IMG/VR virus record: IMGVR_UViG_3300044742_000149
Location: 4,005-68,004 of that record
Direction: 5' to 3' (one strand)
DNA length: 64,000 nucleotides
From: a virus
Below, one piece after another: positions 22,831 through 48,472 of this stretch (its first letter is position 1; each line of letters starts with the position of its first letter). The notes beneath the pieces are model-generated. The model was given only the letters and a program-made list of their open reading frames with translations. It was not told where the DNA came from and searched no databases. A program made the translations under genes and the position numbers.

Positions 22831-22840
22831 GAGGATCGAA

Positions 22841-28500: not shown

Positions 28501-31171
28501 ACCCGCCGGATTTGATTGGAAACAGGTGACAGGCGAGGGCACCTGGAAGACGCTGATGACCATGCGTAACGATGGTCATTTGCATATGTATGGTTACGGC
28601 GTCGGCTACGATGGCCTGACCGGCGGCGGCAACATCATTGGTTTCACCTGGACCGGAAGCGTGATCCGCGCGTTCGTGGACGGCGGCAGCGGTATCGGCG
28701 ACCTCGCGACGCAGGGTTGGGCCGGTGGTCAGTTCCTGAACAAGACGACCGGCGGCACCGTGACCGGAACGACCACCTTCACGCCGGACATCGGAATAGA
28801 CAGTGCTCCCGCGCGCCTCTGGATTTCCGCCAGCTTCGGAGGTGGGTGGAACCCAATCGTGACGGCTGGCGACACCACGATCTTCGCGCGCCGGGACGCC
28901 GGGGCCGATCTGGGCGCGCTCACCCTCATGACGTGGAGCAATTCAGCGCTGGGCATCCGCATCGACGGAGCGTCGCACACCATCGGGATGCACGCCGCCA
29001 GCGGAATTAACATCAATAACACTTTGACCGTTAACGCGAGTGCCAGGGTTTTTACGGGGGATGGTATTCCGCTCGTTGTCAGCGGCGCGACCAAGGGCGT
29101 GCGCTTCCTGGTTGACGGCACCGCGATGGCTATCGAGGGCGTGGATAACACTGGGACCGCGTCATATCAGCCGCTCAGAATTGGCGGTTCGTCGGTTACT
29201 CTCACCGCGCCGGTCACGGTTCAATCGGGCCAGTCTTTCACGCTTGGCAAAGACCCGGCTAACGCCATGGAAGCGGTCACGCGACAGTATCTTGAAGCCA
29301 ACGCCGTCACATTGACCGCCGGGGACGCGCGGTGGATCAACGTCAATGGTGACGCGATGGCGGGCGGACTTGGGTTTGGCGCGGCCAACGTGGGGCCTCT
29401 CGATGTGACGCGCCACATCCGGCTGTATGACGGAGGCGTGCCGAATAACCAATACGGCTTCAGCGTGTCATGGGACGGCGTGGCCACCGCTCGGCTGAAT
29501 TATGTCGTGACGGAACCGGGCCATACCTACCACGCGTTTTGGGTGGGTTCATCAAACGTCCTGGAGATCGGACCCACCGAGACCAAGGTTTACAATCAAC
29601 TCACCGCCACTGGTAACCTCAGTGTCAGTGGCGGCATCAACCTCAACAACGGCGTGTCCGGTCCTCAGAACAGTTCGCGCGGCATCACGTTCTGGGGGTC
29701 TCCGACCGGTCCCAATTACAGCATCGTCGTCAGCGGGAGCACGCTGAATTACAATGTGAACAACACCAATGATAAGCACGATTTCTATAGTGGTGGTGTG
29801 TTGCGCCTTACCGTGACTGACTCGATCGTTTCGTCGGTTCCGGTTACCGTGAACAACGGTGTTCAGGTCAACGGTCAGCTTTCAACCGGCGGCTGGCTGC
29901 GCGCCGCTTACAACACCAACATCACGCCACCACCGGATGGCGCTGGTCTCATTTCATGGAACCGCAGCCAGGGTGAGGGCGAGGTCAATTTTTATAATGG
30001 GTGGAACGGCAGCGGAAGGATTTTCGACTGGCGGCAGGTAACCGGCGTGGGGACCGAGAAGACCCTGATGCACCTCAACACCACGGGCAGTCTGACATTG
30101 GCCGGCACGCTTGAGGTCATGCCGCCGACCGGCCAGTTCTTCGTGCAGAATGGAGCCAAGGTAACGCGCATCGCGGATCGGCTGTTCGTTGGTCCCGCGA
30201 CCGCCAATGATGGACGCTATCCGAATGTGAGCAAGGATTGGTTGCAGGCGTTTCTCATCACGCCGAACGGCGGTTCCATAGTCGGTCCCATGGTGGGCAC
30301 GATGATGTCGGTCTTATCAAGCAACGGTCAGTTCGGGTTCGTCTCGGGATCGAGATCAAGCGACAACGACACCCCACCGGCCTCCGAGAACACCATCGGT
30401 ATCGGCAGCTTCGCGATCAACGATAATACCACCACATTCCGCACGGTTTACGCCTATTACGGCGAAGGCCGACGCCTGCAAGGCGTGAACGGTGTCACGT
30501 TCGGCCTGGAACTGGACGTTTCCAACCAGGACAGCCTCGTGAGTCCGACGCCCTACGGACAGTTACCCGGCCAGACGGTCGGTATCCAGATGGCGAGCGG
30601 CTGCGGGGTCACGCTGCCAAACGCCAACGATACCTCGATTGGCATCGCGTTCCAGAGCAACCCGACGAAGTTCTGCACGGGCATCCTGTTCGGTGCCACA
30701 TCGATCCGGGGAACGGACGGCAATACCGGCGCGGGTGATGCCATCGCTTTCGCGAAAGGGCATACGCTGACGTGGTACTCCCCCGGCGGTCAGCAGACGG
30801 CGAAAATCCAGTGTCAGATCGAAGATCCCGCGCTATCGATGAACCTCATATTCGACAACAATGGAGTAAACTTCACCAGGATTCCGGGCGGCGTTCCCCT
30901 GGTTAATATCCCGCCGGTCGCGAACCCCGCGAACTGGCTGGTCCTGGTGGGCGCCCCGGCGGGCGGCGCGGTGGGTATCGTGGCCGGTGGTGGGGATACG
31001 AATATCAATCTCGCGCTGCATCCCAAGGGTACTGGTGTTCCCGACATGAAATCACAGGCGACGGTGGGCGCCAACGCGGGTAGCGCCGCCGCCCTGCCCG
31101 CCAATCCGTCGGGATATATGGTTCTGATACTCAACGGAGCCATCGTTAAGATTCCATATTATAATCCCTGA
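25592..31171 (+). CDS. Long modular tail fibre (1859 aa, Mtd_N-like N-terminus)
   Basis: LRIKRR N-terminus; repeated V.K.GD.M.G.L and KDP...M.AVTR.Y linkers separating beta-rich modules. Confidence 0.87.
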   Translation: MTDTLRIKRRPAGGAAGAPTSLSSSEIAFNEVDDTLWYGKGDSGGLATSIIPIAGAGAFPALGDGRWVKKAGDTMVGGLSFGQQTSPGDVATNVSRHISLYDGFGGFSITPGTMNVVSGGDLSLFGGWNKGLTLNGTTLWSYVPISLPSPNPTDGLHAAHRNYVDGAVTRAGGPFLALAGGSMLGQLNITNNTNFVLKDASGGDVRFVVGSDNHFGLYSTNAAGATAITVWDFYARTDSPTQTFRLRTYFSQMTHHDGGLAWPTAGGDFRQGSLYADANWGGLFRGFAGNMADLGLADRDGNIMLRIRQGWIEFTEAVSVTNTAVTLTLSKDPTEDMHAVTRRYATTNFAPIVSGGYLALTGGAMTGAIQFNASGNNNYIGQGADGVGAVNNNIKISSWWGVGFYNNVGVGSVPGGQAGIWFDTREGNATFRNVSTTGLYVGGDSTTHNIYHDGSVGIMYRGVAGADWFAFKWDGTYSHIIVNGGDQGTLATQAWTNTNFAASGALGSYVAKAGDVMSGGLRINYTPTNTSAQLWLSPNSGNAGASIIRFNGTFAAPQPDTGPRYATSIRSGQSTTGWGGEYLDVWITDQVNDVNSDARQTRAARFTLGQTTFDTPVVINRNLFVNGAAGDPVSISAPNGSWGRYFSTVVGTRTWAAGTSYYGAYVISDENVPAVRFQIGTDGNADVAQGLTVGANLNIPNGGINLINGVSTGSAQNSTRGITFWGPVTGPNYGIVVTGNTLNYNTDNTLGAHDFYSGGGSVLFRIKGGDRVTSNLPIFARNNIQIDGTAGASVGLTLNNGGGGGVNDILGYNNSSLRWIMRLGGANDQTGDPITGTGGSAFALFAYRNDGNFLGQPFYITRSATGGDTTINGYGYVANSPNGANGIVNLGYLQANYISATAGDARWVNQSGDEITGQLVVTGTTFANGRFLFNDQMGHVPVPSAGAGYLGWNVSNGWGEVNFVNGCYWAPAGFDWKQVTGEGTWKTLMTMRNDGHLHMYGYGVGYDGLTGGGNIIGFTWTGSVIRAFVDGGSGIGDLATQGWAGGQFLNKTTGGTVTGTTTFTPDIGIDSAPARLWISASFGGGWNPIVTAGDTTIFARRDAGADLGALTLMTWSNSALGIRIDGASHTIGMHAASGININNTLTVNASARVFTGDGIPLVVSGATKGVRFLVDGTAMAIEGVDNTGTASYQPLRIGGSSVTLTAPVTVQSGQSFTLGKDPANAMEAVTRQYLEANAVTLTAGDARWINVNGDAMAGGLGFGAANVGPLDVTRHIRLYDGGVPNNQYGFSVSWDGVATARLNYVVTEPGHTYHAFWVGSSNVLEIGPTETKVYNQLTATGNLSVSGGINLNNGVSGPQNSSRGITFWGSPTGPNYSIVVSGSTLNYNVNNTNDKHDFYSGGVLRLTVTDSIVSSVPVTVNNGVQVNGQLSTGGWLRAAYNTNITPPPDGAGLISWNRSQGEGEVNFYNGWNGSGRIFDWRQVTGVGTEKTLMHLNTTGSLTLAGTLEVMPPTGQFFVQNGAKVTRIADRLFVGPATANDGRYPNVSKDWLQAFLITPNGGSIVGPMVGTMMSVLSSNGQFGFVSGSRSSDNDTPPASENTIGIGSFAINDNTTTFRTVYAYYGEGRRLQGVNGVTFGLELDVSNQDSLVSPTPYGQLPGQTVGIQMASGCGVTLPNANDTSIGIAFQSNPTKFCTGILFGATSIRGTDGNTGAGDAIAFAKGHTLTWYSPGGQQTAKIQCQIEDPALSMNLIFDNNGVNFTRIPGGVPLVNIPPVANPANWLVLVGAPAGGAVGIVAGGGDTNINLALHPKGTGVPDMKSQATVGANAGSAAALPANPSGYMVLILNGAIVKIPYYNP

Positions 31172-35875: not shown

Positions 35876-36115
35876 ATGGAAGCTACACAACAACTGATGA
35901 TTGGCCTTGAAGTCCGCCAGTGGAACGACGTGGTCGAGGCGCTGAACAACGCGCCATTCCGGATCGCCGCCCCGCTCATACAAGAGATCGTGCGCCAGCA
36001 TAACGAAGCCGAGATGAGGGCTCAGGCGGCGAAGGAGACCGGTCCCGACATCGAAATCACCCGCCCCACCCCCAGGACCAATGGCGCCGCCGCGTCTGAT
36101 CATCAAATGAGATGA
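35876..36115 (+). CDS. Hypothetical protein
   Basis: RBS AGGAG; W..V..AL...PFR..APLI. Confidence 0.65.
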   Translation: MEATQQLMIGLEVRQWNDVVEALNNAPFRIAAPLIQEIVRQHNEAEMRAQAAKETGPDIEITRPTPRTNGAAASDHQMR

Positions 36116-36738
36116 GCGATCCCCCGCCGCCGCCACCTGGGGCCGTGGCGGGGACCATAGATCGCGTCCTGCGTTTCATCGACGAGCCATGGAAAGCAGT
36201 CGTGGTCGTCGTGCTGATCCTGATCGTGGGCGTTGGCTGGTTCGCCTGGGACAAACGCGACACGCTGTTCGAGGCCTGGCTGACACCCAGTGCGCCGGAA
36301 CTGAAGACGGCGATGATTCCCGAGGCGCTCGACAAACTCACCTCCGAAACCAACGCCGACATCGTTCAAATCTGGGCGGTCGACCTCTCGGCCAACAGTC
36401 AATGGTTCCTCGGCGCGCGACTGCACAGCGGCGAGCGTCCCGTCATTCCGTCGCCGCGACGGTTGCCGATAATCGTCGCGTCTTCCGACGTGAAAGCTCT
36501 ACTCGATGTTCTGGAGGGCACGCCGACCTGCAAGGACCTGGAGTCGAACGGCTCACCACTGGCGCGGCGGCTTGAAGCGCGTGGCATGAAGCGCGGCTGC
36601 GCGATCCCCATCCCGCCGGGACCGCAGGCTTTCGTGGGCGTCATCTATATCGCCTGGGCGACCGCGACCGACGCCAGCAACGAGAACGTGGCCGTCGGCG
36701 CGGCGCGTGAGATCGCGACGAAACTCGCGACACACTGA
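36112..36738 (+). CDS. Putative holin: single TM helix plus GAF-like domain
   Basis: TM AVVVVVLILIVGVGWFAW; C-terminal GCAIPIPP...FVGVIYIAW; immediately upstream of endolysin. Confidence 0.6.
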   Translation: MSDPPPPPPGAVAGTIDRVLRFIDEPWKAVVVVVLILIVGVGWFAWDKRDTLFEAWLTPSAPELKTAMIPEALDKLTSETNADIVQIWAVDLSANSQWFLGARLHSGERPVIPSPRRLPIIVASSDVKALLDVLEGTPTCKDLESNGSPLARRLEARGMKRGCAIPIPPGPQAFVGVIYIAWATATDASNENVAVGAAREIATKLATH

Positions 36739-36750
36739 AAGGATACGGCC

Positions 36751-37332
36751 ATGGTAGATCGTGACAAGTTCTTCGACGCCGTGAGAAATAATCCGTTCCC
36801 GGGATCACTCACCCAGGAGCAGGTGAACGGAATGAACTACCTGCTCGACACCTGGGAAAAACACTTCGCCAAAGCGAACCCGAACGATGGAGACATGTGG
36901 TTGGCTTACGCTCTCGCGACCACGTTCCACGAGACGGCGCAACGAATGGAGCCCATCGAGGAATACGGAAAGGGGGCCGGCAAGTCCTACGGACAGCCAA
37001 CGGGTCCGTACGGGAAATGCTACTATGGTCGAGGACACGTTCAACTCACATGGGAAACTAATTACATCAAGGCCCAGCGTCAGTTGCTGGCGTATGGCGT
37101 GACAGCACCTCTGCACCGCGAGCCGGACCTGATGCTGCGCGACGAAACATCGGCGCTGGTGCTGTATGATGGCTCCATTGATGGTTGGTTCACTGGTGTG
37201 GGTTTGCCGAAATATTTCAACGCCGCGAAAGGCATCGAGGACCCGTACAATGCCCGTCGGGTGATCAATGGGACGGATCAGGCTTCGCTCATTGAAGGCT
37301 ACTATTGGGACTTTAAGAAAGCCATTATGTAG
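36751..37332 (+). CDS. Endolysin, glycoside hydrolase family 19-like
   Basis: LAY.LAT.FHET...M.PIEEYG, YYGRGHVQLTW..NY, ARR.INGTD. Confidence 0.92.
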   Translation: MVDRDKFFDAVRNNPFPGSLTQEQVNGMNYLLDTWEKHFAKANPNDGDMWLAYALATTFHETAQRMEPIEEYGKGAGKSYGQPTGPYGKCYYGRGHVQLTWETNYIKAQRQLLAYGVTAPLHREPDLMLRDETSALVLYDGSIDGWFTGVGLPKYFNAAKGIEDPYNARRVINGTDQASLIEGYYWDFKKAIM

Positions 37333-37495
37333 TCCGCGGCGGCTTCAGGACCCCGGTAAGGCTAAGGTATCGAACGTTGTCGTCCTGAGCGGCCCCGTTC
37401 AGGTCACTGTTCCCAACCTCGTCAATGAATAGGCGGCACGAAGAGCCACAGTGCCGGCAGGGAATGACTGCCATGGCAGATCAGAAATCATCCTC

Positions 37496-37735
37496 TCAGG
37501 GGCGACGTCGGTCCATCTGATTTTCCATCTCCAGGCGCAATTCGACCAAACCGACCTTGGCGCGGGAGATGCGGCGACACAGGTCGGCGACATTGGCCGA
37601 GAGCCGGTCGAGAGCCCTGTCCGCCGTTTCCTTTTCCGGGGAGTTTGGCATTCGGTCGAGGATGCGTCGGATTACCGCGATGTCAGCCCGTGGATCGCTC
37701 ATGTCCGGTCCAGCCAGTATTTCCATGACGCTCAT
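37496..37735 (-). CDS. Hypothetical protein
   Basis: ATGA-coupled small ORF. Confidence 0.5.
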   Translation of the reverse strand: MSVMEILAGPDMSDPRADIAVIRRILDRMPNSPEKETADRALDRLSANVADLCRRISRAKVGLVELRLEMENQMDRRRP

Positions 37736-38022
37736 GCCCTGCCACCTCGCCCGCGCGTCAGGTCTTTGCGAATCGCCCGGCCCCTGGCCCGCTCGGCGTC
37801 GCCGAGAAGCTCGACATACTCTAGCTCGAGAGCGGCGCGCTCCGCATCAGTCATCGGCACCCATTGGTCGGCATGGCGGACGTAGTATTCGCCGCAGTTC
37901 ATGCACAGCGACAGATCGTCTTCTCGCGGCGCGCGGAACTGGCCCTCCCACGCGCTCGCGGCGTCCATCGTGTAACCGCAGGCAAAGCACATCCACGGTT
38001 TGTCGCGCGTGACGTCGCTCAT
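37732..38022 (-). CDS. Zn-ribbon protein
   Basis: CFACG...CMNCG. Confidence 0.6.
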   Translation of the reverse strand: MSDVTRDKPWMCFACGYTMDAASAWEGQFRAPREDDLSLCMNCGEYYVRHADQWVPMTDAERAALELEYVELLGDAERARGRAIRKDLTRGRGGRA

Positions 38023-38121
38023 GCCCTGCCCCCGCTCCAACTTCCCGGCGCCGCATCTCGTCATACTGACGAAAAGCCTTCCTCGGATCCATGGCCGTCC
38101 GGAGACGGCCTGGTCTGTCAG

Positions 38122-38298
38122 TCATGGCAAAGCCTTGAGAGTGTCGAGCACGTTCCGGTAGGCGTCACGCGCGCCGCGGCGGTAGGCCAGAGTCTCGGCG
38201 GTGTCGCCGTTCTCGGGCAGCGCCAGGAACGGCGGTTCCAGTTCCGAGATAGCCTTCTCCAGGCCCTCGATGATCGCGGCGGTGATAGCGTCAGTCAT
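38122..38298 (-). CDS. Hypothetical protein
   Basis: RBS GGAGGAG before ATG at 38298. Confidence 0.55.
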   Translation of the reverse strand: MTDAITAAIIEGLEKAISELEPPFLALPENGDTAETLAYRRGARDAYRNVLDTLKALP

Positions 38299-38418
38299 GG
38301 GCACTCCTCCCGTCCCGACAGTCCCGATTCCCGTTCGTCGTAATTCTGGCTTCCCATTCCATGACGCCTCCATCGCATTGCCATTCCCAGCTTTCCCAGG
38401 GTGGGAAGGCTGGGAAAG

Positions 38419-38892
38419 CTAACTAACACCAGCGTTCCCCATTCCCCGTGTCCTGCCCGCGAGCCATTCCTGAGCAGCCTTTTTCGTTCGCTCCGCCGCG
38501 ATCCGCGCCAAGGAGACCCGTGCGTCACTCGAATCGGGCGCAGTAAGGAAGAAAAGATTCTCCTGTGTAGCTACTCCGAATTGTTTTCCGTTAGGCGGTT
38601 TTCCTGGGTTTTCGATCAACAGCGTGTAGAGGTTGGAGGTCCGCTCGGTACCCCACGAGGCCGGTTTGCGGCGCGCTATCCATCCGACGATGCCCAGGCC
38701 CCTCGCCGCCTTCAGGGCGTTCCCGACGGTCTTGGCGCAGCACTTCGCTCGTTTGGCGATCGCCTCGTGTGACGGGAAAATCCCGCCGCGGCCGCGAAAT
38801 TTTGCCAGACAAAGTAGCACATCGCGGAAGGCCCGGGTGAGTTCGCCGGTCCTGAACAACGCCCATATCTTGTTTTCCCACGTATTTCCCAT
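38419..38892 (-). CDS. Winged-HTH replication-initiator-like protein
   Basis: LT......LL.L......G.IFPSHEAIA..A.C..KTV..ALK.....G.V.W..R......RTSN.Y.L. Confidence 0.75.
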   Translation of the reverse strand: MGNTWENKIWALFRTGELTRAFRDVLLCLAKFRGRGGIFPSHEAIAKRAKCCAKTVGNALKAARGLGIVGWIARRKPASWGTERTSNLYTLLIENPGKPPNGKQFGVATQENLFFLTAPDSSDARVSLARIAAERTKKAAQEWLAGRTRGMGNAGVS

Positions 38893-39086
38893 GTCTTCCC
38901 CCTTGGCGAGGGCGGCACGGAGGGCGCGTCGCAACTGTTGCAACGGGCTTGCATTCCAAAACATTTTGTAGGAGGGTCAGGACAACACAGCTACCAACTG
39001 TTGTTTGACCCATCCGGGTTTGTGTTTTGGCGGTGCCCCTCGGTGCCGCCATTCGCATTTTTACCTCATGTCAATCTCCAGCGAGT

Positions 39087-39108
39087 CGGCGGGAGTTCCG
39101 CCGCTTTT
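39087..39108 (+). terminator. Intrinsic terminator, antisense to the rep-like gene leader
   Basis: CGGCGG-GAGTT-CCGCCG followed by CTTTT. Confidence 0.5.
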
Positions 39109-39295
39109 CGGCCATTGTTACGCTGCGGGCTTTGTAACAGGCATGTCAAGACCGCATTGCTCAACGCCTCTGACATCTGTATTCCGATGGCGCGAGGCGG
39201 CGCGGATTCCAGCCGAATACCAGCTCGAAAAACGCCTCAAGATCGTCCATGAGCAGACCGCGCTTCGACCTCGGGGGTGAGTTTGTCGAACGCCA

Positions 39296-39493
39296 TCAGA
39301 ACACTTTGAATATGCTTTTTTCGATGGTCTTGCCGCACCGCATACAACGGCGGCGCTGGTAAAGTGAACCATCGTAGTTAGCCTCCCACATCGTCCAACG
39401 GTGGAACCAGAGCCAGCATTTCTCGGCTCGTGGCGAGTATATTTCGCGGGCGGCTTCCTTGGCGAGACGCCGTAGGTCATTTACCGGGGTCAT
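39296..39493 (-). CDS. Small Cys/His (Zn-binding) protein
   Basis: RBS GGAGG; C....H.W..W...Q.R.C.RCG. Confidence 0.6.
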   Translation of the reverse strand: MTPVNDLRRLAKEAAREIYSPRAEKCWLWFHRWTMWEANYDGSLYQRRRCMRCGKTIEKSIFKVF

Positions 39494-39580
39494 ATTTCCT
39501 CCACGGCCAGCATCCAAGGCACCCACGCGACCGATGGTGCCTGATGCGGTATCCTATCGCCGCTTGCATCTCGGAGCGGG

Positions 39581-40021
39581 TCATACTTCCCCCACCTGCG
39601 CGTCTGACTTCTTACCCCTCCTAGTCTGACCGCCCCGCTTCAGGGCTTTGAGCCTTCCACGCACGAGGTCATACCCGAGCTTCCGCACGTCCTCTGGCAG
39701 GGGGTCGCCGCTAACCTCCTGGAGATCCCGCGCGATGGCGATCACCCCCTTGATTTCCTCCAGGTCGGCCTTCGGGTCTGACGGTGTGACCGGCTGGTCC
39801 GCCACGACGGTCACGCGGGTTTGTTGGCGGTTTTGCTGGATTATCGCCGGTATGTTGCGCTCGAACCATTTACCGATAGGCAGACCATCCCGGTCGGCGG
39901 CGGAGATGGCGGCGTTGCGGATTTCGATCGGAATGCCCTTGATCGTCCACGGCTTGATCCGGTCCGACTGGTCCGATTCTGGCGCGGCAAAGTCTGCCTC
40001 CGGAATTACCTGCACATCCAT
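39581..40021 (-). CDS. Ribbon-helix-helix-like DNA-binding protein
   Basis: KPWTIKGIP.E.R.AA..AA.RDG..IG.W, resembling the PWSVKG..RHH-like module at the PodJ N-terminus; RBS GGGGAGG. Confidence 0.65.
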   Translation of the reverse strand: MDVQVIPEADFAAPESDQSDRIKPWTIKGIPIEIRNAAISAADRDGLPIGKWFERNIPAIIQQNRQQTRVTVVADQPVTPSDPKADLEEIKGVIAIARDLQEVSGDPLPEDVRKLGYDLVRGRLKALKRGGQTRRGKKSDAQVGEV

Positions 40022-40052
40022 GGTCTGACTTTCCTCCCCGAAAGTCTGACCG
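39602..40052. repeat. GTCTGAC repeat cluster (5 exact copies plus variants)
   Basis: GTCTGAC at 39602, 39624, 39776, 40023, 40044; GTCCGAC at 39962; GTCCGAT at 39971. Confidence 0.85.
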
Positions 40053-40148
40053 ATGCCCCGATTCGGTCTTCCTGACAACAAGTTGTTTGGACCATGCGTC
40101 CCCCACGAATCGCTATTCCGGAATTAGTGGCGGATCAGCAACAGCGGG

Positions 40149-40304
40149 TCACTCATCGCGTGCTCCTCCGGGTTCCAACTTCGGGTAGGCGTAGCCGATG
40201 CCGATGGCGAGAGCTTCGGCGCGGGCGTATTCGCGCATCTTCTCGGGGAAGATATGGCGCTCCATCGCATCCAGCATGGCGCGCGATCCTCCAGATGGCG
40301 TCAT
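40149..40304 (-). CDS. Hypothetical small protein
   Basis: Start directly adjoins the upstream gene end. Confidence 0.4.
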   Translation of the reverse strand: MTPSGGSRAMLDAMERHIFPEKMREYARAEALAIGIGYAYPKLEPGGARDE

Positions 40305-40528
40305 GTCACACCCCCACCAACACCCCGCTCCATCTCCCGTAGCACCAGCCACGTTATGACCGCGGCATGATGATCCCTGCCACGCGCCCGTTCCATGGCG
40401 TCGCGCAGCGCCGCCGGGTCGCCGTCGAACGTCCCATCGGCGTGCAGCGTGAACCTCACCGCGTCGTCTCCGGTGCCAAAAACGATTTTGACCGGGAACG
40501 TCGGCTCGCCGCTGAAGAAGCTGGTCAT
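40301..40528 (-). CDS. Hypothetical protein
   Basis: ATG at 40528 coupled to upstream stop. Confidence 0.5.
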   Translation of the reverse strand: MTSFFSGEPTFPVKIVFGTGDDAVRFTLHADGTFDGDPAALRDAMERARGRDHHAAVITWLVLREMERGVGGGVT

Positions 40529-40770
40529 CACACCCCCACCAGAACCAAACCCTTCGCCGCGCGCGTGCTGCCCGTGTAAAGCAGCCGCCGCACCTCCAGC
40601 GGGTTGTCGGCCATCCGCGCCCGCGTGTTGGGAATGTCCAGAAACACCCATTGGAACGTCGATCCCTGGCTGGCATGCAGGGTCATCGCATAGATGCTCT
40701 GGGCGCGGATGAACGACGCGGTGAACTCGTGCAGCCGCGCGGCGGCGAGGGGGATCGTGGCTTCGGTCAT
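40528..40770 (-). pseudogene. Stand-alone C-terminal fragment of an SF1B (RecD/Dda-like) helicase
   Basis: YAMTLHASQGSTF..VF.D and RRLLYTG.TRA (motifs V and VI) with no Walker A/B part. Confidence 0.7.
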
Positions 40771-40962
40771 GCCGTGACCCTCCATTGCATCAGAGCCTCC
40801 GCGAGCAAATCTCGCTCCTCGACTGTCAGGGTTGACCAGGGCGGCGTGACGACCCGATCCTTTCCACGCTTGGCGGCGTATCGGTTGCAGATAGGCTCAC
40901 GGTCCAACCGTTGCGCAGCCGAAGCCAGCATGTATCATTTATGTAGCCCGCCGCGTTCGCGC

Positions 40963-41220
40963 TCACCTCCTCCTCCTCCCGCGCCTGGGGGCAGGGGAGG
41001 GCGCTTTAGCGATGCCTGGCATTCGCAGCCCGTCAAGCCGGGCGTGCGCCAGGCAGCACCAGCCCAGCAGCCCGTCGTCGGCGGAGAGCGCCGTCACCGT
41101 GACGACGGGTGCGTCGCACCAGCGGCAGTCCATCAGCGCCAAGCAGGGCGTCTGGAACACGGTGCGGACGGTGCCACTCATCGTGTGGACCCCGCGATCG
41201 GCGAAGTCGCCGCCGGTCAC
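40963..41220 (-). CDS. Hypothetical Cys-containing protein
   Basis: GTGA coupling; CRWC...WCC..H. Confidence 0.45.
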   Translation of the reverse strand: MTGGDFADRGVHTMSGTVRTVFQTPCLALMDCRWCDAPVVTVTALSADDGLLGWCCLAHARLDGLRMPGIAKAPSPAPRRGRRRR

Positions 41221-41555
41221 CGCCTGGGCCTCCGGGGCGGCACGGTGACGGGGACCACATCGTCGGCCACACGTTTCAGCGCGGCGGCGAAGTCGTGGAC
41301 CCAGGCCAATTGAGCCGCGGTTTGCCGGCTCCGGTTTGCGACAATGTAGAGGGCCAACAGCCCTATCGCCGGCTCATGCCGAAAGAGCGTCTCCGACAAT
41401 TCTCGGACCGCGTCGCCGATCGTCTGCTCCCGTTCCGTTGCCCACATGCGAGCGGCGTTGTCCCAGAGGCCCGCCCAGGTGTGTTCCTCGACAGCATCTT
41501 GAGGGAAGTCTTTGGCCAGTTTCGCGAACATCGCGAGCGCTTCTTTGTAGGCCAT
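41217..41555 (-). CDS. Hypothetical protein
   Basis: RBS AGGAGGAG. Confidence 0.6.
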   Translation of the reverse strand: MAYKEALAMFAKLAKDFPQDAVEEHTWAGLWDNAARMWATEREQTIGDAVRELSETLFRHEPAIGLLALYIVANRSRQTAAQLAWVHDFAAALKRVADDVVPVTVPPRRPRR

Positions 41556-41831
41556 TCACTCCTCCTGTGCGGTGCGTTGCCCCCGCTTGGTCGGCTTGGC
41601 TGGTTGTGGTGGCGCGCGATCCACGGCCACAACCACCTCGGCGGCGGGCCAGTAGATCCGGCCCTTGCGCGGGGCGTCGGCCAGCAGCGGCTCACCGTTC
41701 AGTTCCTCGATCACCTGGAGCGCCTCGATGCCACGTTCCTCCAGCGCATCCCGAAGGTGATCCCGTATCTGCGTGACATGCAGCGCGTCGTCGGCGGGAA
41801 ACCTGACCGTCAGTCGCACCATCTTTGTCAC
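41556..41831 (-). CDS. Hypothetical protein
   Basis: GTG at 41831 overlaps upstream TGA; RBS GAGGAG. Confidence 0.55.
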   Translation of the reverse strand: MTKMVRLTVRFPADDALHVTQIRDHLRDALEERGIEALQVIEELNGEPLLADAPRKGRIYWPAAEVVVAVDRAPPQPAKPTKRGQRTAQEE

Positions 41832-42982
41832 AACGGTAGCTCCTCGGTTTGCTCGGTGGGCTGTTGAGTGGGCGCGCCCGACGGCGAATTGCGCTGCACG
41901 CTGGCGTCGATCGCGGGCTTGAGCCTCGTCCGGTAGAGGTCCCGTTGGTTGTTTCGCAGCCATTCGATGCGGGTCCGCATTTCCGCGTCATCGACGATCG
42001 CGAGATGCGCCTGGAGATCCGGCGTGCCGAGAAACCGCTCGACCATACTATCCACCCAAGCGATCATCTTTGGATCGGGTCCGGATGACGCTGCTCCATC
42101 GGGTGGTGGGGTCACCTCCTCATCGGGCGGTCCGGACGCATAATCTGGCGCATAATCCGGTGACCCATCCGGTGCCTCCTCGGTCGGCACATCGCCGCGC
42201 GAGGTCCGTTGTCGGGCGGGGCGTGTGGCGATGGGAGCTACGGTATCGCCCCTGGCCCAGGCAGCGATGCGCTCGCCGGTCGCCTCGTCCAGCGGCGCGG
42301 TGAGGTCGATCATGTGATCCAACTTGTCGAGCCGCTTCAGCCACGTCGGCACGCCAGGGTTCTTCGCGTCGAGCAAGAAGCTGCACGTCATCGCGAACGG
42401 GATGTCGGGCGCGCAAACCGGCGTCGGCGTGGCGTCGGGGTTTGGCACCATCTTGCCGCGCCGGTCCTTGATCAGGTCCAGCTTCTTTTCGGCGTGGCAA
42501 CACAACACGATGTGCGCGTTCAATTGCCAGAGACGCTGGAGCAAATGCTTATGCTCCATCTTCGGCTTGATCCACGCGGCGTATTTGAGAGCTTCCTGCT
42601 TGGAGAGATCACCCTTCGTCATCCGATTCAGTTCGTCATTGAACATGTCCAGAACGCCACCGGGGCCGACATGTTCATGGCTGAATGAGTCACAGACCCA
42701 GACCGAGTGACCCGCGCGCTGCGAGGCCACCGCGGCCGCCTCGAACCGCTTCGGCGTGAACGGTTCCTTCAATTCCCCGTGCAGGAAACTGAACTCGTCG
42801 GCGTAATAAAGTGCGCGGCCATGTTCGGTGTCGCAGAAGCCAATAAGCTTACCGCCAGCGAGACCGGTGGCCAGACGCAGCGCGGACTTCGTCTTGCCCG
42901 AACCCGACGGTCCCGCGAGCATGATCAGAACGCCGACATTGCCTCGTTTCGCTGGGGAATAGATGAGGTCGCCGTCAGCCAC
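41828..42982 (-). CDS. AAA-type P-loop ATPase (Sak4-like recombination/annealing protein)
   Basis: GPSGSGKT Walker A, DTE.GR...YAD.F, DSFSHEH.G.GG.L; GTG at 42982; next to RecE-like nuclease. Confidence 0.85.
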   Translation of the reverse strand: MADGDLIYSPAKRGNVGVLIMLAGPSGSGKTKSALRLATGLAGGKLIGFCDTEHGRALYYADEFSFLHGELKEPFTPKRFEAAAVASQRAGHSVWVCDSFSHEHVGPGGVLDMFNDELNRMTKGDLSKQEALKYAAWIKPKMEHKHLLQRLWQLNAHIVLCCHAEKKLDLIKDRRGKMVPNPDATPTPVCAPDIPFAMTCSFLLDAKNPGVPTWLKRLDKLDHMIDLTAPLDEATGERIAAWARGDTVAPIATRPARQRTSRGDVPTEEAPDGSPDYAPDYASGPPDEEVTPPPDGAASSGPDPKMIAWVDSMVERFLGTPDLQAHLAIVDDAEMRTRIEWLRNNQRDLYRTRLKPAIDASVQRNSPSGAPTQQPTEQTEELPL

Positions 42983-43172
42983 ACCGACGCTCCACCTCGG
43001 CCAAGAGCAACTGAGCTTCCTCAACACACGTTGACATCTCCCCCTTGACGATCGGCTGGCCGCGCACCGCGACGATCCGGGCGCCAAGCAGGATGGTGGC
43101 CATGATTGCCAGCATCATCTCCCGGTCCAGAGGAGCGATCTCGACGTTGTCGTTGACCAGGTCCATCGTCAT
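42975..43172 (-). CDS. Hypothetical small protein
   Basis: ATGA-coupled; RBS GGGAGG. Confidence 0.5.
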   Translation of the reverse strand: MTMDLVNDNVEIAPLDREMMLAIMATILLGARIVAVRGQPIVKGEMSTCVEEAQLLLAEVERRCG

Positions 43173-44104
43173 CCTCCCAGGTTTCCCGTGTCGAGCATCA
43201 TCTTCACGGCGGCGTTGTCCGCTTCCGACCGCACGCGGCCACGACCGGATTGCCGTTGCCACATCCGTTCTTTTAGTTTCCACGGTGGAATGTCGATCCA
43301 TTCTACGTCGTCGGGATAAGCCGGCCACTCGTCGGTCTCGCGGCAGCGTTGCCACAGCGCGATGGCGTCGTGAATTTCTTCGTTCGCGTCATCGAGCGCG
43401 GCGGGCGTGTACTCAAATACGCGAATGCCATATGGCGGCTTCGTTTCGATCACGCAGAACCGCATTCCCTCTGGCGGTTCGCCGCGCACGCACTCAGCGC
43501 CACGAGGGTAGTAGGCCGCTTGCATGTCATAACCGAATGCCGACCGGGCGAACGTGTCGGCGGAAGCGAGGCCGCTCGTCGTCTTCAGATCCCAGAGAAA
43601 AGCGCCGGGTTCATCAGGCAGCCAGTCGACCTTGCAGCGGCCCCACTCGTTTCCCTCAGTCCATATCAGGGTCTGTTCGGGTTTGCCGGCGGTGAACGCA
43701 CCCGTGCGCAGCCGGAACCGTTCCAGCTCGTCGACGACGCGACGGACACCCTCATAGCTGGTCAGCTTGAGTGGGATTTTTCCCTCCGCGATGGCGGCTT
43801 CGCGCATCTCCTTGGCTTTGTTCGTTCTGAAGTCGGTTACGTTCAGGACGCGGACGCGGTCCTCTCCCTGGAGAAACATCGCGTGGGCCACGGTCCCGAC
43901 GTCCTGCGCGTCGGTAGAGTCCCACTCCGCATCCGGTGCGCCGCCGAGCCGTGGGTGCGCGGCCCAGGCGTGGCGCGGAGAGACCAGCATCAGGCGAGCG
44001 GTCGTGTTGTTGAGTGAAGGCACGACGACCGGGTCAGCGAGGTAGGCCGGATCGCTGATCTGGTAGATGCCCGGCTGATCGATACGTGGGGCGGTCTCGC
44101 TCAT
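43169..44104 (-). CDS. RecE-like PD-(D/E)XK exonuclease (DUF3799-like)
   Basis: PGIY.I....Y.ADP, SP.H, GT.AH...L, PEQTL.W, RCKVDWL, DLKTT, YD.QAAYY. Confidence 0.88.
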   Translation of the reverse strand: MSETAPRIDQPGIYQISDPAYLADPVVVPSLNNTTARLMLVSPRHAWAAHPRLGGAPDAEWDSTDAQDVGTVAHAMFLQGEDRVRVLNVTDFRTNKAKEMREAAIAEGKIPLKLTSYEGVRRVVDELERFRLRTGAFTAGKPEQTLIWTEGNEWGRCKVDWLPDEPGAFLWDLKTTSGLASADTFARSAFGYDMQAAYYPRGAECVRGEPPEGMRFCVIETKPPYGIRVFEYTPAALDDANEEIHDAIALWQRCRETDEWPAYPDDVEWIDIPPWKLKERMWQRQSGRGRVRSEADNAAVKMMLDTGNLGG

Positions 44105-45468
44105 GGCGTGGCCTCTTGTGGGGCGCGCTTACGAACCCTGCCGGCGACAAGTTCGATCCCGGTCGGGCTGTCGGAGCCAACGCGCTCCAGCCAGACCTGA
44201 TACCCACGCTCCCGCGCCATCTGCCTGACGAGTTCCATCCCATCAGAGTCCAGCAATGAACCGTCACGAACCCGGATCACCTTCAGCCGCGGGTTCAATG
44301 CCATTGCCAGGGCGATGCTGGTACGGAGTTGCTCAGCGTCGGAGGCCTGATCGAACGGTAGATCGTTGAGCCGCACACCGCCCTCGGTGGTGAGCGTAAG
44401 GCCTGGGATTGGCATCTCGGCCGCGGCGATCTTCGCGTCCGCCTCATGCCTGCGAGCCGCCATCGCGTCAGTCAGAGCCTTCGCCTCGCCGTCCAGGCGC
44501 TTGGCCTCGACCTCTGCTTCACGACGTTGCCGTGCCACATCGATCCGCGTGTTGATACCGCGCGCCTGGTTCACTTTGTTCAGTATCAGGTTGGTGTCCA
44601 CGATTTCCGGCAGCGGCGGGGCGTCGTGCAATTTCTGTCGGAGTTCCTCGGCGTCCAACCGGAGCAGTTCAGCGGCGGCGCCTGTCTCACTGGCCTTCTT
44701 GGCCAGGGCGTGTGCTTCGGCGAGCATTTCCTCGGCCCGCCGCAGCTTGACCTCAATCTCTGTCTCCACGTTCTCGCGACGGACGCGCCTTGTCTCTGTC
44801 TCGGTGTTCAGCTTCCCCGCCGCGATGAATTCCTGCTCCATGGCTCCGAGATCGATCGGAGCCTCGGGCAGTTCGTGTTCACCAGGGACAACGAATTTGG
44901 CGATCAGACCTTTGAGTTGTCGCACTTGCGTATTGAGATCGCGACGCGCGTTGAAGTCGGCGTTGTTCGCCATCTCGATCGCTTCGAAGTCGACATCAGG
45001 AACGAACTGGCGCAGCAGCGCGAACTGCTCCTTCTGGTCCATTCTCAGAAACCCCAGCGGATCGAGGCTCAACTTATTAAAAAAGCTGTCTACGAGTTCC
45101 TGCGGGCGCCGATATTCAGCACCGGCCGCGTTGCGAACGGACAACGAGGTCGTGACACCACTCGCGCCCTGGCTGATATTTCGACGCACGACGAATTCGC
45201 CGAGGTCGATCTGACAGAATCCTTCGTCGGCGCCGCGGCGGATCGGCTCGGCGGCGATCTCCCTCGACCCGGCGAGGGTCCAGAACAGCGCGTCGAGCAC
45301 GCTGGTCTTGCCGCTGCCGTTCTTGCCGGTGAGTTCCACTATCTCCCCGTCGGGGCGGATGTGGACGACCTCGAGCCGCTTGATATTTTCGGCAATGAAT
45401 TCCACAATTCTCATGCCGCCCGCCTCTGCTGGAGGCTGCCCGGCATCATCCCTCGAAATGTCAGCCAT
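44101..45468 (-). CDS. SMC/Rad50-like coiled-coil ATPase
   Basis: ENIKRL, GKNGSGKTSVLDA, long coiled coil, QAS.AEQLR, VIRVRDGSLLD. Confidence 0.85.
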   Translation of the reverse strand: MADISRDDAGQPPAEAGGMRIVEFIAENIKRLEVVHIRPDGEIVELTGKNGSGKTSVLDALFWTLAGSREIAAEPIRRGADEGFCQIDLGEFVVRRNISQGASGVTTSLSVRNAAGAEYRRPQELVDSFFNKLSLDPLGFLRMDQKEQFALLRQFVPDVDFEAIEMANNADFNARRDLNTQVRQLKGLIAKFVVPGEHELPEAPIDLGAMEQEFIAAGKLNTETETRRVRRENVETEIEVKLRRAEEMLAEAHALAKKASETGAAAELLRLDAEELRQKLHDAPPLPEIVDTNLILNKVNQARGINTRIDVARQRREAEVEAKRLDGEAKALTDAMAARRHEADAKIAAAEMPIPGLTLTTEGGVRLNDLPFDQASDAEQLRTSIALAMALNPRLKVIRVRDGSLLDSDGMELVRQMARERGYQVWLERVGSDSPTGIELVAGRVRKRAPQEATP

Positions 45469-45500
45469 CGTACCTCGCCCCTTTTCAGGGAGGCGATTAA

Positions 45501-45594
45501 GGGACATTATGTCCCCATGGTCAAGAACGCCACGTCCCGGCACGTTCCCGCGTGGATTGCTAAAGGACAATGCCACTTTGGGACGATACGTCAC
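45501..45594. promoter_or_regulatory. Left operator region: three GGGAC-N5-GTCCC sites
   Basis: GGGACATTATGTCCC at 45501, AGAACGCCACGTCCC at 45524, GGGACGATACGTCAC at 45580. Confidence 0.7.
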
Positions 45595-45699
45595 CCTCGC
45601 CGGTCTGGCGCTCGCCGTGTGTTACGTTAAGATTACCGGAGAGGAGTCCGACCGTGCCGTCAGTCTCGTTTACCCCGGCCGGTTCGGATCGGCCTCAAT

Positions 45700-46374
45700 C
45701 TATCCGTTTGACGTCGGACGCGCCCTTTTTCTTGCGGGGGCGATATTGCGTGGCCGGCTGCGTGTGCGATGCCCACTCGGTTTTACGTCCGAAGGTGCGG
45801 ACCCTGGAAGCAGGCCAGGATTACGCCGCAGCAATTCCTCTCCAAACTCAGCGGCGATTCCGTCGAGGATGCCTCGATACAGGAAGTCAAGCCCCACCCG
45901 ATGCTGATCACCGAACTGGCGCGAAAATTGTATCAATGTATCAACCGGGGGTATTGCCGCGCCACTCTCCCAGGACAGCCAGGTAGCAACGTCAACATCC
46001 ATGAGAGCCGCGGTCTTTTCGACTGACGGCTCAAGGATCAGGCGCACCATTCGCAGCCTGTCGCCGACCGAATACTCGCCTTCGGCGAGCCCGCGTCTAT
46101 CTATCAAAGTGTCGTTCCCCGCGACTCGGCCAGCGATCAGCATGTCCAGTGACACGCCGGTCAATTTCTGGATCGCGATAAGAACTTCCATCGGCGCCCC
46201 GAGTTCCGCCCGCTCGTAGCGAGAGTAACGCTCCCGCTTGATCCCGAGCGCGGCCGAGAACGCGGCGATAGAATAATCCGTCACACCTAATTTTGCCCCG
46301 TGGGCATAGCGAAGGGCGCGCAATCGACGCGCCACCGCTGCCAGCACGGCATGATCTCTCGTGCCATTTTCCAT
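45700..46374 (-). CDS. CI-like repressor with two tandem XRE HTH domains
   Basis: RLRALR...FS.ALGI....YSRYER...VSLD.LI.G and GDRLR.VR...A.LM.V...TW..WESG...P...GLDFLY.G; divergent from cro. Confidence 0.85.
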   Translation of the reverse strand: MENGTRDHAVLAAVARRLRALRYAHGAKLGVTDYSIAAFSAALGIKRERYSRYERAELGAPMEVLIAIQKLTGVSLDMLIAGRVAGNDTLIDRRGLAEGEYSVGDRLRMVRLILEPSVEKTAALMDVDVATWLSWESGAAIPPVDTLIQFSRQFGDQHRVGLDFLYRGILDGIAAEFGEELLRRNPGLLPGSAPSDVKPSGHRTRSRPRNIAPARKRARPTSNG

Positions 46375-46389
46375 ATTACGCAGTCATAA

Positions 46390-46450
46390 GGGACCACACG
46401 TCCCCTGTCCGGGGGGGTGTTCGGGCTTGCCTTTGGAGACGCTACGTCCC
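46390..46450. promoter_or_regulatory. Right operator region: two GGGAC-N5-GTCCC sites between repressor and cro
   Basis: GGGACCACACGTCCC at 46390, GAGACGCTACGTCCC at 46436; TTGCCT -35-like at 46427. Confidence 0.72.
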
Positions 46451-46463
46451 AATGTCGCGGGCC

Positions 46464-46706
46464 ATGACGTCCTTCTCAACCCTCCTGGCCCACCACAACG
46501 TGACCGAGGCCGACGTCGCCGCCGCTCTCGGGGTCACCCCGAAAGCCGTGCGGAACTGGCGCAATGGCGCCTACGGGCCGTCGCCGGCCATGGCACGCGC
46601 CATCGAAAAAGAATTCGGCATCCCGAAGCATCTGCTGCGACCGGACATCTGGGACGCGCCAGTCGAACCGAAAAGCAGTCGCCGAAACGAAAAAGAACCC
46701 GCTTAA
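46464..46706 (+). CDS. cro: Cro/YdaS-like HTH regulator
   Basis: VAAALGVTPKAVRNWRNG...PS...A..IE...GIP...LRPDIW. Confidence 0.85.
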   Translation: MTSFSTLLAHHNVTEADVAAALGVTPKAVRNWRNGAYGPSPAMARAIEKEFGIPKHLLRPDIWDAPVEPKSSRRNEKEPA

Positions 46707-46731
46707 TTCCAAACTCGAGGGGCTAAAAATA

Positions 46732-47316
46732 ATGTCAGACGATCCAGCAGCCAGCGTGATGGCCGTAAAACCCGAAACATTCCTCGGCCACTGGCGCGAC
46801 ATGCGCGACGCCAAAGATGAGGCGGGCACTGCCGCGACGGAGGTCGCGCGACGGAAAAAGGCGGCGAAACGGGCCGGCGTGGATCTGGACGTGGTCAAGC
46901 TGGTCGAGAAACTCAGTGACCTGGAAGACGACGAGCGTCAGGCGTTCCTCTCCAAGGTCGAGACATATTGCGGCTGGCTGAAGCTGCCGCTCGGCGCGTT
47001 CTCGGCGGGGATCGTTATCGAGGAGCCGAAAGAATCATCGCGCGAAGCCTTCAACCGATGGGAGGCCGGTCAGGATGGACACGAGGCCGGGCTCAACGGC
47101 TCACCGAAAGAAGCCAACCCGCATCGTAACGGGTCGCCGGAAGCCCAAGAGTGGGCGAAGAAGTGGAAGATCGGCTTCGACGCCAACCAGCGAAAGATCG
47201 CGGCGAAGTTGGCGAAGGGTACCGGCGCTCCGAGGAAAGGGGCGAACAAACCGAACGCCGCGGTGAGCGGCAAGATGGCCGCGGCTGGCGAAGGGCTGAC
47301 ATCCACGATCAACTAA
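46732..47316 (+). CDS. GapR/DUF2312-like domain fused to an Rmf-like motif
   Basis: K.AK..G.D..V.K.V..L......ER......E.Y...L, then G..AG..G.....NP...GSP..Q.W...W..G. Confidence 0.6.
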   Translation: MSDDPAASVMAVKPETFLGHWRDMRDAKDEAGTAATEVARRKKAAKRAGVDLDVVKLVEKLSDLEDDERQAFLSKVETYCGWLKLPLGAFSAGIVIEEPKESSREAFNRWEAGQDGHEAGLNGSPKEANPHRNGSPEAQEWAKKWKIGFDANQRKIAAKLAKGTGAPRKGANKPNAAVSGKMAAAGEGLTSTIN

Positions 47317-47329
47317 ATGGGGTGCCGTC

Positions 47330-47770
47330 GTGGGGCACCCCGCGTTTCAGCTCGATGAATGGGTCGTACCCGAAGTCGACCTACAGGCTGCTGGCGCACA
47401 GGCATTCGATCGCCTGTTGCGTCCACCAGCCATGTGGACGGCCATCGCGCTCGGGCACATCGAACTAACCGGGCAGCAAGCAGCACGGCTCTCTCGCATC
47501 GGGCTCAAACGATCGTGGCCCGACCACCTGGTCATTTGGCCTGGGAATGTCGTCGGCATTGAGTGGAAGACCGGCGACGGCAAGCTATCGATCTCGCGCA
47601 TGGTTCACTCGAAACGCGGCAAGCCTCGTTGGGTGGAGGGCCAGCGCGAAACATTTCCGAAACTCAAAGCGGCGGGGATGCGGATCTACGTCTGCATCAG
47701 CGTCGGCCATGCGCTGCGCATTCTGAAGGCGCTCGAATGTCCAATGGTGAAGTGGGAGATCACCGCATGA
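47330..47770 (+). CDS. VRR-NUC-like nuclease (possible Holliday junction resolvase)
   Basis: G.K..WPD.L.......GIEWKT..GKLS...Q. Confidence 0.75.
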   Translation: MGHPAFQLDEWVVPEVDLQAAGAQAFDRLLRPPAMWTAIALGHIELTGQQAARLSRIGLKRSWPDHLVIWPGNVVGIEWKTGDGKLSISRMVHSKRGKPRWVEGQRETFPKLKAAGMRIYVCISVGHALRILKALECPMVKWEITA

Positions 47771-48432: not shown

Positions 48433-48472
48433 TGGCGCTCAACTGTCCAATGTTGAACTGGGAGATAACGGC

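Follow-up and report, generated by a model that had tools for sequence, protein, structure and literature searches.

Two genes of plasmid kinship in the integrase position of a soil siphophage: a candidate replication-control cassette

What stands in the place of the integrase in a phage genome that encodes none? This question was raised by a 64,000-nucleotide (nt) stretch of viral DNA (the window), which comprises bases 4005-68004, or 64 of the 68 kb, of the 68,004-bp virus record IMGVR_UViG_3300044742_000149. The phage is a siphophage without integrase that is known solely as contigs from soil and rhizosphere metagenomes. At the far end of its leftward early operon, in the int slot of lambda-like phages, it carries a cassette of two small genes encoding a winged-helix protein and a ribbon-helix-helix (RHH) protein. 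An original prediction made from this stretch had seen in these genes a plasmid-maintenance-like module and had proposed the phage as a candidate phage-plasmid. We found the plasmid kinship of the cassette to be well supported by sequence comparison, and the pairing of the RHH protein with an operator to be well supported as well. That the region at 38.4-40.1 kb serves as a plasmid-type replication-control cassette of an extrachromosomal prophage, by the mechanism set out below, is a tentative proposal with somewhat less than an even chance of being right; among the readings of the phage as a whole, that of a plasmid prophage ranks first, and we hold it with much the same reserve.

Indeed, no integrase lay between the lysis and recombination genes, as had been stated in the original prediction, and this was true of the whole 68,004-bp record. 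Six profile families, all of which do score in control genomes, were searched over the record at E ≤ 1. No match was obtained for PF00589 (tyrosine recombinase), PF00239 (serine recombinase), PF00665 (rve/DDE transposase) or PF16684 (protelomerase), nor for the ParA families PF13614 (AAA_31) and PF01656 (CbiA). Since all six families were matchless over the whole record, the concern over an integrase beyond the window, for which a check of the rest of the contig had been proposed, is largely removed; the 4 kb in question hold end repeats and terminase genes. The cassette itself was also seen in metagenome contigs: the contig of the source run spanned 35926-50000 unchanged, and 39539-40144 was present with 3 differences in an independent metagenome run. 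A contig joint that skips 39584-40112 was set aside, as its shorter side of just 33 letters was too weak for use.

The RHH gene is the upstream gene of the cassette, and its features, with those of the two small open reading frames (ORFs) behind it, are as follows.

40023-40050, minus strand: candidate operator pair, consisting of GTCAGAC, 14 nt with the ribosome-binding site (RBS), GTCAGAC, C and ATG; the heptads are at 40044-40050 and 40023-40029.
39581-40021, minus strand: RHH-like candidate autoregulator gene, 146 amino acids (aa), identical to the gene call of the source (P0016).
39962-39967 and 39971-39976: TCGGAC variants of the heptad.
39776-39782, minus strand: single GTCAGAC.
39602-39630, minus strand: second GTCAGAC pair, with 22-nt spacing, within the 3' end of the RHH gene.
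39477-39584, minus strand: candidate ORF of 35 codons, read from the sequence; its ATG and the stop codon of the RHH gene overlap in ATGA.
39296-39493, minus strand: 65-aa ORF with a C-terminal CxxC, overlapping the 35-codon ORF (best PHROG match weak, E 0.0068; none in NCBIfam).

The 146-aa protein had an RHH core at residues ~22-64, together with a disordered tail of acidic character and a C-terminal part of two helices, and the core motif D-R-I-K-P-W-T-I-K-G-I...R-N-A-A was invariant across 13 sequences. In the AF2 monomer model (pLDDT 59), helices 32-45, 49-69, 83-104 and 110-131 came after an unstructured strand. When residues 16-72 were modeled in two copies, the score was 0.49, compared to 0.00 for the best of 3 controls, and the contacts 26-26', 25-27' and 24-27' corresponded to an antiparallel ribbon; contact agreement between runs was at least 96%, with a partner pLDDT of at least 73. 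The mark set for this score is passed by 20 of 30 solved homodimers and by 1 of 23 single chains, and because RHH dimers have been solved many times over, a pass shows likeness to RHH dimers. The modeling thus bears out the original description of the gene as RHH-like and shows that it encodes a predicted RHH dimer. No curated RHH family was matched in Pfam (E ≤ 1), PHROGs or NCBIfam, the last of which gave no match for any of six cassette proteins. A PDB profile search returned nothing significant, with a weak match to a ParD antitoxin (E 1.2), and the neighbors of the protein in the Atlas were named CopG-family (score 0.89), which we took as a lead only.

We then considered the heptads, with which the RHH gene had been described as covered. 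Within 39602-40050 we counted 5 of the 14 copies of GTCAGAC in the window, all of them on the minus strand, which is that of the gene, and 7 of the 71 copies of TCRGAC. The concentration of the motif and its conserved layout stood up, but the bare count was not extreme, with some 7-mer reaching five copies in 450 nt in 5 of 40 Markov nulls. The heptads carry weight because of their placement and the conservation of their layout in relatives, not because of their number. The same order of heptad, RBS, heptad and ATG was observed in the plasmid loci L007, L017, L018 and L020, the viral contigs L028 and L030 had this start layout with GTC[ACG]GAC and a 22-nt period, and the Roseomonas plasmid p5 had a three-unit xxCAGAC array, also with a 22-nt period. 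The layout, with heptads about two helical turns apart, is thus retained in plasmid and phage homologues that are just 31-41% identical. Found again in four plasmids and in two viral contigs, the layout at the start of the RHH gene has the pattern of an autoregulatory operator.

A more distant relative departed from this motif. Upstream of a diverged RHH homologue at locus L029 (31% identity, strand W-T-I-K-S-V), we observed about six CAACTTGTT-type repeats (about 9850-10003) and not GTCAGAC, which suggests that the RHH protein and the specificity of its operator may change together. In the relatives P0025-P0027, C-terminal G-[QR]-T-E peptide repeats recurred every 7-8 residues; they would correspond to an expanded DNA array of a heptad-type motif with the same period, as read back from the proteins.

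The second gene of the cassette lies downstream, beyond a long leader.

38419-38892, minus strand: gene for a single winged-helix protein of 157 aa, a candidate plasmid-type initiator or regulator.
38384-38416, minus strand: inverted repeat directly after the winged-helix stop codon (15-nt arms, 93% complementary, 3-nt loop).

This winged-HTH gene, too, proved to be real, with its start revised. The longer ORF spans 38419-38964 on the minus strand (181 aa); M25 is invariant, is the start of 13 of 16 aligned family members and, by this alignment, is most likely the true start. The protein matched HTH_36 (PF13730) with E 2.9e-5 and 24.2 bits, for a gathering cutoff of 25 bits, and the homologues at loci L007, L009, L008, L004 and L003 reached 25.9-33.3 bits; PF13730 was carried by 7 of 15 database homologues. 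Its PHROG matches were weak and all to replication-initiator families, the best being "replication initiation O-like" (2e-5), and the AF2 model consisted of one winged helix and a long C-terminal helix (pLDDT 59.6). A PDB sequence profile search gave nothing significant. By profile search, the family comprised 1,411 representative clusters at E ≤ 1e-3, mostly of 100-230 aa, and ten remote clusters that we looked up were all named "hypothetical" or "Helix-turn-helix domain." The genome collection contained one winged-helix locus, whose context was uninformative because it lay on a contig of just 6.4 kb from a metagenome-assembled genome.

Where else do these two proteins occur? A comparison with alphaproteobacterial plasmid proteins, which had been proposed as a check, brought up relatives of both. 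Homologues of the winged-helix protein, about 38% identical over residues 1-94, were found on 28 plasmid records (19 from Acetobacter, 6 from Gluconobacter, 2 from Komagataeibacter and 1 from Sphingopyxis), and homologues of the RHH protein on 8, all from Acetobacteraceae (2 each from Roseomonas, Acetobacter, Komagataeibacter and Novacetimonas). The 50,697 phage records contained no homologue of either protein. Both genes were present together on three plasmids (NC_016029, NC_021977 and NZ_CP023659), adjacent and convergent in the case of Apa386Bp4. Homologues of both proteins, with 35-44% identity, were found among pAC5, pGXY050, pGO128, Apa386Bp4 and pApBDGP5B. These small Acetobacteraceae plasmids are like the phage in the heptad layout at the RHH start and in an antisense-oriented hairpin upstream of the winged-helix gene. 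They differ in carrying an AT-rich repeat between or beside the two genes, whereas the phage genes are on the same strand and have no such repeat nearby.

The gene content of the smallest plasmids bears on what the winged-helix protein might do. Apart from the winged-helix gene, pAC5 (5,123 bp) held just a resolvase and a Tn3 transposase, with iteron-like repeats at 21-nt spacing beside the winged-helix gene, and a 23-nt repeat (2.2 copies) lay between the two genes at L007 and L017. No further Rep or initiator was annotated on pGXY050 or pGO128. The winged-helix gene was neighbored by a VapE-like helicase (2.8e-78) on pGO128 and by an AAA_25 replication helicase (2.1e-25) at L003, while on pKHC110_1 the RHH gene came after a Rep_3 initiator. 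MOB-suite assigned no replicon type to the small Acetobacteraceae plasmids carrying homologues. In the PLSDB gene tables, no protein but the winged-helix one is a candidate initiator on plasmids of 4-5 kb; as these tables are incomplete, the absence of another Rep is strongly hinted at rather than proven.

A third element shared with plasmids was found in the leader of the winged-helix gene.

38893-39295, minus strand: non-coding leader of the winged-helix gene, 403 nt.
39007-39050, plus strand: two hairpins, candidate 3' end of a countertranscript (antisense -22.0 versus sense -18.4 kcal/mol).
39007-39020, plus strand: terminator-like site from a promoter/terminator scan.

The leader had been described as long and structured, and both properties were confirmed. 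It contained no convincing ORF, its RNA fold had a z of -3.1, and 0 of 100 shuffles folded as well. About 180 nt of it (about 38893-39095) were kept, with invariant blocks, in six loci (blastn and alignment) whose proteins are 55-64% identical. RNAalifold returned an invariant hairpin in the leader alignment, and in a small RBS-covering hairpin pairing was kept despite two-sided changes in 2 of the 6 rows. Rfam gave no match on 36.5-41.5 kb. We then compared the strongest hairpin within 260 nt upstream of each winged-helix homologue, using 14 loci, of which L006 and L012 are identical in sequence. In 13 of the 14, all but L004, the antisense strand gave the more stable form of this hairpin, and in 10 the hairpin was situated 155-201 nt ahead of the start codon. 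In all five plasmids a T-run came after the hairpin on the antisense strand, for which reason we read the plasmid hairpin as an antisense intrinsic terminator, and at L007 an antisense promoter (TTGAAA-17-TACTAT, by eye) faced it. Antisense terminator hairpins are present in the rep leaders of the pMV158, pIP501 and R1 systems. As the upstream hairpin folds better in antisense and in plasmids amounts to an antisense terminator, these data suggest countertranscript (antisense RNA) control of the winged-helix gene.

In the mechanism that we propose, the RHH protein would bind the GTCAGAC heptads and repress its own operon. The winged-helix protein, presumably a homologue of the sole candidate initiator of 4-5 kb Acetobacteraceae plasmids, would be expressed from the long conserved leader, and translation from this leader would be opposed by a short antisense RNA that has its end at the conserved hairpins, as in countertranscript copy control. 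Together, the two genes would provide controlled low-copy extrachromosomal replication of the phage genome, and lytic replication would be left to the module of a further gene, for which the YdaU-type initiator placed at 50.2 kb by the original prediction was recovered.

50233-51012, plus strand: DUF1376 (YdaU-type) replication/primosome protein in the rightward early operon (PF07120, E 1.2e-14; phrog_3992 "primosomal protein," 3.2e-17).

Known systems resemble this proposal in part. In copG-repB with RNAII of pMV158/pLS1, the RHH gene precedes the initiator gene on the same strand, as it does the candidate initiator gene in the cassette. As in the proposal, its product represses at its own promoter and an antisense RNA is complementary to the initiator leader, hence dual copy control. 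pMV158/pLS1 differs by its HUH rolling-circle initiator in place of a 157-aa winged-helix protein, by an RHH protein of 45 aa compared to 146 aa with an extra C-terminal part, and by one pseudo-symmetric element instead of the spaced direct heptads observed here. Moreover, two small ORFs and 403 nt separate the phage genes, and the phage antisense RNA is a candidate only. Omega of pSM19035 (Inc18) is similar to the RHH protein in its disordered N-terminal tail and in its 7-bp heptads in direct and inverted arrays, and it represses its own operon as well as copy-control genes. In contrast to the phage heptads, which are 13-22 nt apart, Omega heptads are contiguous and of a different sequence; Omega works with the ParA protein delta, whereas the phage is without ParA, and no sequence similarity between Omega and the RHH protein was detected. 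Similarly to this phage, P1, N15 and SSU5 are tailed and integrase-less and combine a lytic module with a second, plasmid-type module. However, they have a recognized Rep with iterons, ParAB/SopAB and often addiction systems, none of which was found in the phage.

Two viral relatives share one cassette gene together with a plasmid trait. The first, G003, is a viral record of 60.7 kb (96% complete) with an SU10-type portal, a capsid protein, PolA, a DUF927 primase-helicase and an SNF2 helicase. Within L004 3290-4686 (with L034-L036), its winged-helix homologue adjoins a ParA (AAA_31, 2.1e-22), beside which a small ORF resembles, by eye, an RHH centromere binder; G003, a podophage-like genome, presents a partition cassette in an otherwise lytic-looking phage. 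No recombinase was found in G002 or G003. A search for an HK97-type capsid gave no match in G001-G003, the phage nature of G003 resting on other families. The second is plasmid p5 of Roseomonas mucosa GlSt084 (NZ_CP147878.1, L033), a 49.7-kb circular record from a cultured strain. Besides the RHH homologue, it encodes a terminase, a portal, capsid and tail proteins and a lysozyme. This complete-looking tailed-phage genome looks like an unrecognized phage-plasmid. Also present on p5 were two copies of IS5, a restriction-modification pair and a serine recombinase of small size, and pTT14-8 (L019, 16.9 kb), from another R. mucosa strain, carried head and terminase genes and the RHH homologue alone. 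p5 and G003 are phage genomes with one cassette gene and either a circular record or a ParA cassette; they differ from the window in being otherwise unrelated phages, neither of which has both genes, and p5 in having its small serine recombinase.

A wider view, which we think rather unlikely to hold in its entirety, is that this phage, G003 and Roseomonas p5 belong to unrecognized alphaproteobacterial phage-plasmid groups built on a minimal uncharacterized replicon, one shared with the smallest cryptic plasmids of acetic acid bacteria. Under the same joint reserve, that replicon would comprise a single winged-helix initiator of ~160 aa, antisense-RNA control and an RHH autoregulator reading GTCAGAC-type heptads two helical turns apart, here without a partition system. 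Known phage-plasmids are mostly from enterobacteria, vibrios and Firmicutes and were found by curated Rep and Par profiles. If a replicon missed by such profiles exists, whole phage-plasmid groups would be hidden in soil Alphaproteobacteria. In small plasmids of Acetobacter, Gluconobacter and Komagataeibacter, which are useful as vectors, the two genes may also define a replicon that has gone untyped, and the RHH protein and its heptads, conserved in plasmids as well as phages, are a pair of protein and site that lends itself to clean testing.

A number of results weigh against an extrachromosomal prophage maintained by this cassette. Of the features by which phage-plasmids are recognized, a full set of structural, packaging and lysis genes was present and integration machinery was absent, but neither a curated Rep profile nor a partition system was found, and the lack of an integrase is equally expected of a virulent phage. 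The winged-helix gene had been called Rep-like; weak profiles and the tiny-plasmid context agree with this, but no characterized Rep family does. Indeed, no curated Rep profile recognized the protein, HTH_36 staying below its cutoff and NCBIfam giving nothing. A Rep_3 initiator was rejected (hhalign probability 0.35%; one winged helix and not WH1 plus WH2; no iterons), and so was the P1 RepL family, an Atlas lead, with no match to PF05732 (RepL) at E ≤ 10. Foldseek returned generic winged-helix regulators alone for the model (best E 9.7e-3), the nearest being MarR, Fur and TFE. The initiator role of the plasmid homologues is itself inferred, and we found no experimental work on this protein family in the literature on small plasmids of Acetobacter and acetic acid bacteria or on pAC5; a literature mention of "pAC5" concerned an unrelated plasmid of the same name.

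Further points against it come from the arrangement of the locus. On plasmids, the RHH and winged-helix genes were convergent or apart, never in one operon. Neither iterons nor an AT-rich stretch were found beside the phage winged-helix gene (local G+C, 0.49-0.71), and no direct-repeat family near it was better than chance quality. The antisense T-run was interrupted in the phage family, and the promoter/terminator scan of 37.2-40.5 kb stayed at chance level (1 promoter-like site versus a mean of 0.8, and 2 terminator-like sites versus 2.9). The absence of an adjacent ParA-like ATPase, noted in the original prediction, extended to the whole record, in which a ParB_N-like protein stood alone and no toxin-antitoxin pair was found. 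Thus, of the copy-control and stability system that had been proposed, a candidate autoregulating RHH protein and an antisense-oriented hairpin were recovered, but no stability or partition function was. The CI/Cro switch fared similarly: an HTH_3 protein is indeed encoded, but no clear repeated operator was found at the CI/Cro-like divergent pair and no cleavage domain was detected in the CI-like protein, which also matched the RstR family of NCBIfam at 3.6e-9, below the cutoff of that family.

45700-46374, minus strand: XRE/CI-like HTH protein (HTH_31, 1.1e-9; HTH_3, 1.6e-9), divergent from the rightward operon.
53110-53718, in the rightward operon: lone ParB_N-like protein.

The distribution of the two families weighs in the same direction. 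Each was also found on uncultivated viral contigs, at 5 loci each, and so is not plasmid-only; some of these relatives, G003 among them, resemble podophages of lytic type that encode a polymerase of their own, and the window shares with each such viral locus that one gene alone. A look for circular, unintegrated relatives of the phage itself came up empty, in that no close relatives, integrated or circular, were found. With 22 kb as the megablast query, nothing was matched in phage records, the portal was at most 47% identical to any portal in a phage or plasmid record, and the neighboring AAA_24 gene had just 7 distant viral loci, sharing at most the recombination pair. Given such portals and such distant AAA_24 loci, the int slot is not comparable across relatives. 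Extrachromosomal lysogeny is therefore something that we only infer, because the Rep evidence is weak, partition genes and iterons were not found, the families are not plasmid-only and close relatives are lacking.

The alternative that survives best, which is possible if doubtful, is that the two genes are a shuffled regulatory cassette without replicon function, transcription factors being mobile between plasmids and phages. Such a cassette might regulate late genes, form an autoregulated repressor pair or act against resident plasmids by exclusion or incompatibility, in a phage that is virulent or has another route to lysogeny. The generic fold, with MarR, Fur and TFE as nearest neighbors, would fit such a role, and so would the size of the family, 1,411 clusters of small single-domain proteins without functional names. 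Homologues occur in phages with their own PolA, primase and helicase, this gene and no neighbors are common to the loci, and iterons and partition genes were not found in the window. A mere regulator is harder to reconcile with the 4-5 kb plasmids, on which no other initiator is annotated, with the replication helicases that neighbor the homologue in pGO128 and L003, or with the ParA cassette in G003. An antisense terminator hairpin in the leader is, moreover, mainly a trait of rep genes, and the PHROG matches, though weak, are all to replication-initiator families. If the cassette is only a regulator, what remains is an accessory module of an ordinary kind, in a phage that lacks an integrase and may be virulent.

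Could the winged-helix protein instead serve lytic replication? As an accessory origin-binding protein it would act with the DUF1376 module or with the repeats at the genome ends, and there would be no plasmid state. We consider this improbable. Its PHROG matches are to N-domains of lambda O-like initiators, its gene lies in an early operon beside recombination genes, and a possible binding array is available.

63615-63745: four 35-nt direct repeats, TTTTGAATCAGG[AT]GCAACTC...GGGG, with T-runs between them.

However, the gene is at the far end of the recombination operon and distant from the DUF1376 module, and the homologues that have names are found on plasmids. Tight autoregulation together with antisense opposition would also seem to fit low-copy control better than burst replication.

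Very unlikely, in our view, is a reading in which the winged-helix gene is unrelated and the RHH protein, alone or together with the two small downstream ORFs, forms an antitoxin-toxin pair or acts as a centromere binder. Tailed RHH proteins on heptad arrays do include centromere binders and antitoxins, the two small ORFs overlap and the weak ParD match points the same way, but these ORFs were not found beside the plasmid homologues, there is no ParA partner in the phage or in the 4.6-kb plasmid, and heptads on the start of the gene itself are the layout of autoregulation. That the record is incomplete, with an integrase in an unassembled part past the terminal array, is hardly credible: it is of the IMG/VR class linear without end repeats and its assembly breaks in a repeat array, but CheckV completeness is 100%, the same array stands at both ends as if one array had been cut, and gene order is unbroken from terminase through structure and lysis to early genes.

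At both ends, the record breaks off within the same short-unit G-rich array (~360 nt of it at the left end and ~200 nt at the right end), most likely one array cut by the assembler, and because both ends stop inside it, little sequence is likely to be missing. The 35-nt repeats (region 63615-64000) are followed by this array of at least 560 nt, with the G-rich units GGGTGCC, GGGTCCGA and GGTCGCC, which runs across both record ends; it lies just upstream of the HNH and terminase genes and is also the site of the assembly break. The region 63615-64000 with the array could serve in packaging or as an origin, or could be DNA prone to forming G-quadruplexes. Besides the repeat array, the 4 kb beyond the window hold three ORFs, listed here with the last gene of the plus-strand structural region.

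Outside the window: HNH-like ORF, named by eye.
Outside the window: small-terminase-like ORF, named by eye.
Outside the window: terminase ORF, 588 aa, 32% identical to an annotated large terminase.
36751-37332, plus strand: lysozyme-like ORF, named by eye, up to which the structural genes extend.

The leftward operon runs from 45594 to 37496, and its first genes encode an SbcC-like ATPase, a PDDEXK nuclease (DUF3799) and the AAA_24 ATPase. Upstream of the cassette it contains a helicase fragment.

40528-40785, minus strand: stand-alone C-terminal fragment of an SF1 helicase, 85 aa (UvrD_C_2, E 1.5e-14).

This SF1 (UvrD/Dda-like) ORF corresponds to positions 808-868 of 986 in the Dda-like helicase phrog_325 and is probably a remnant. 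The stretch 40281-40736 was skipped by contigs of two other metagenome runs (X3 and X5), which makes this a variable spot among relatives. Within the variable stretch, ~200 nt upstream of the RHH gene, 2.3 copies of a 22-nt unit were observed in tandem (40254-40300).

In the structural region, two giant plus-strand ORFs of 1,996 aa and 1,859 aa were present at 9719-15709 and 25592-31171. The G+C content of the window peaked (0.67-0.68) at 20000-22840, where we observed tandem repeats of 60 nt and 108 nt (21326-21522 and 21995-22238); this interval, free of ORFs in the crude gene map, may hold a repetitive structural gene that was missed by the filter.

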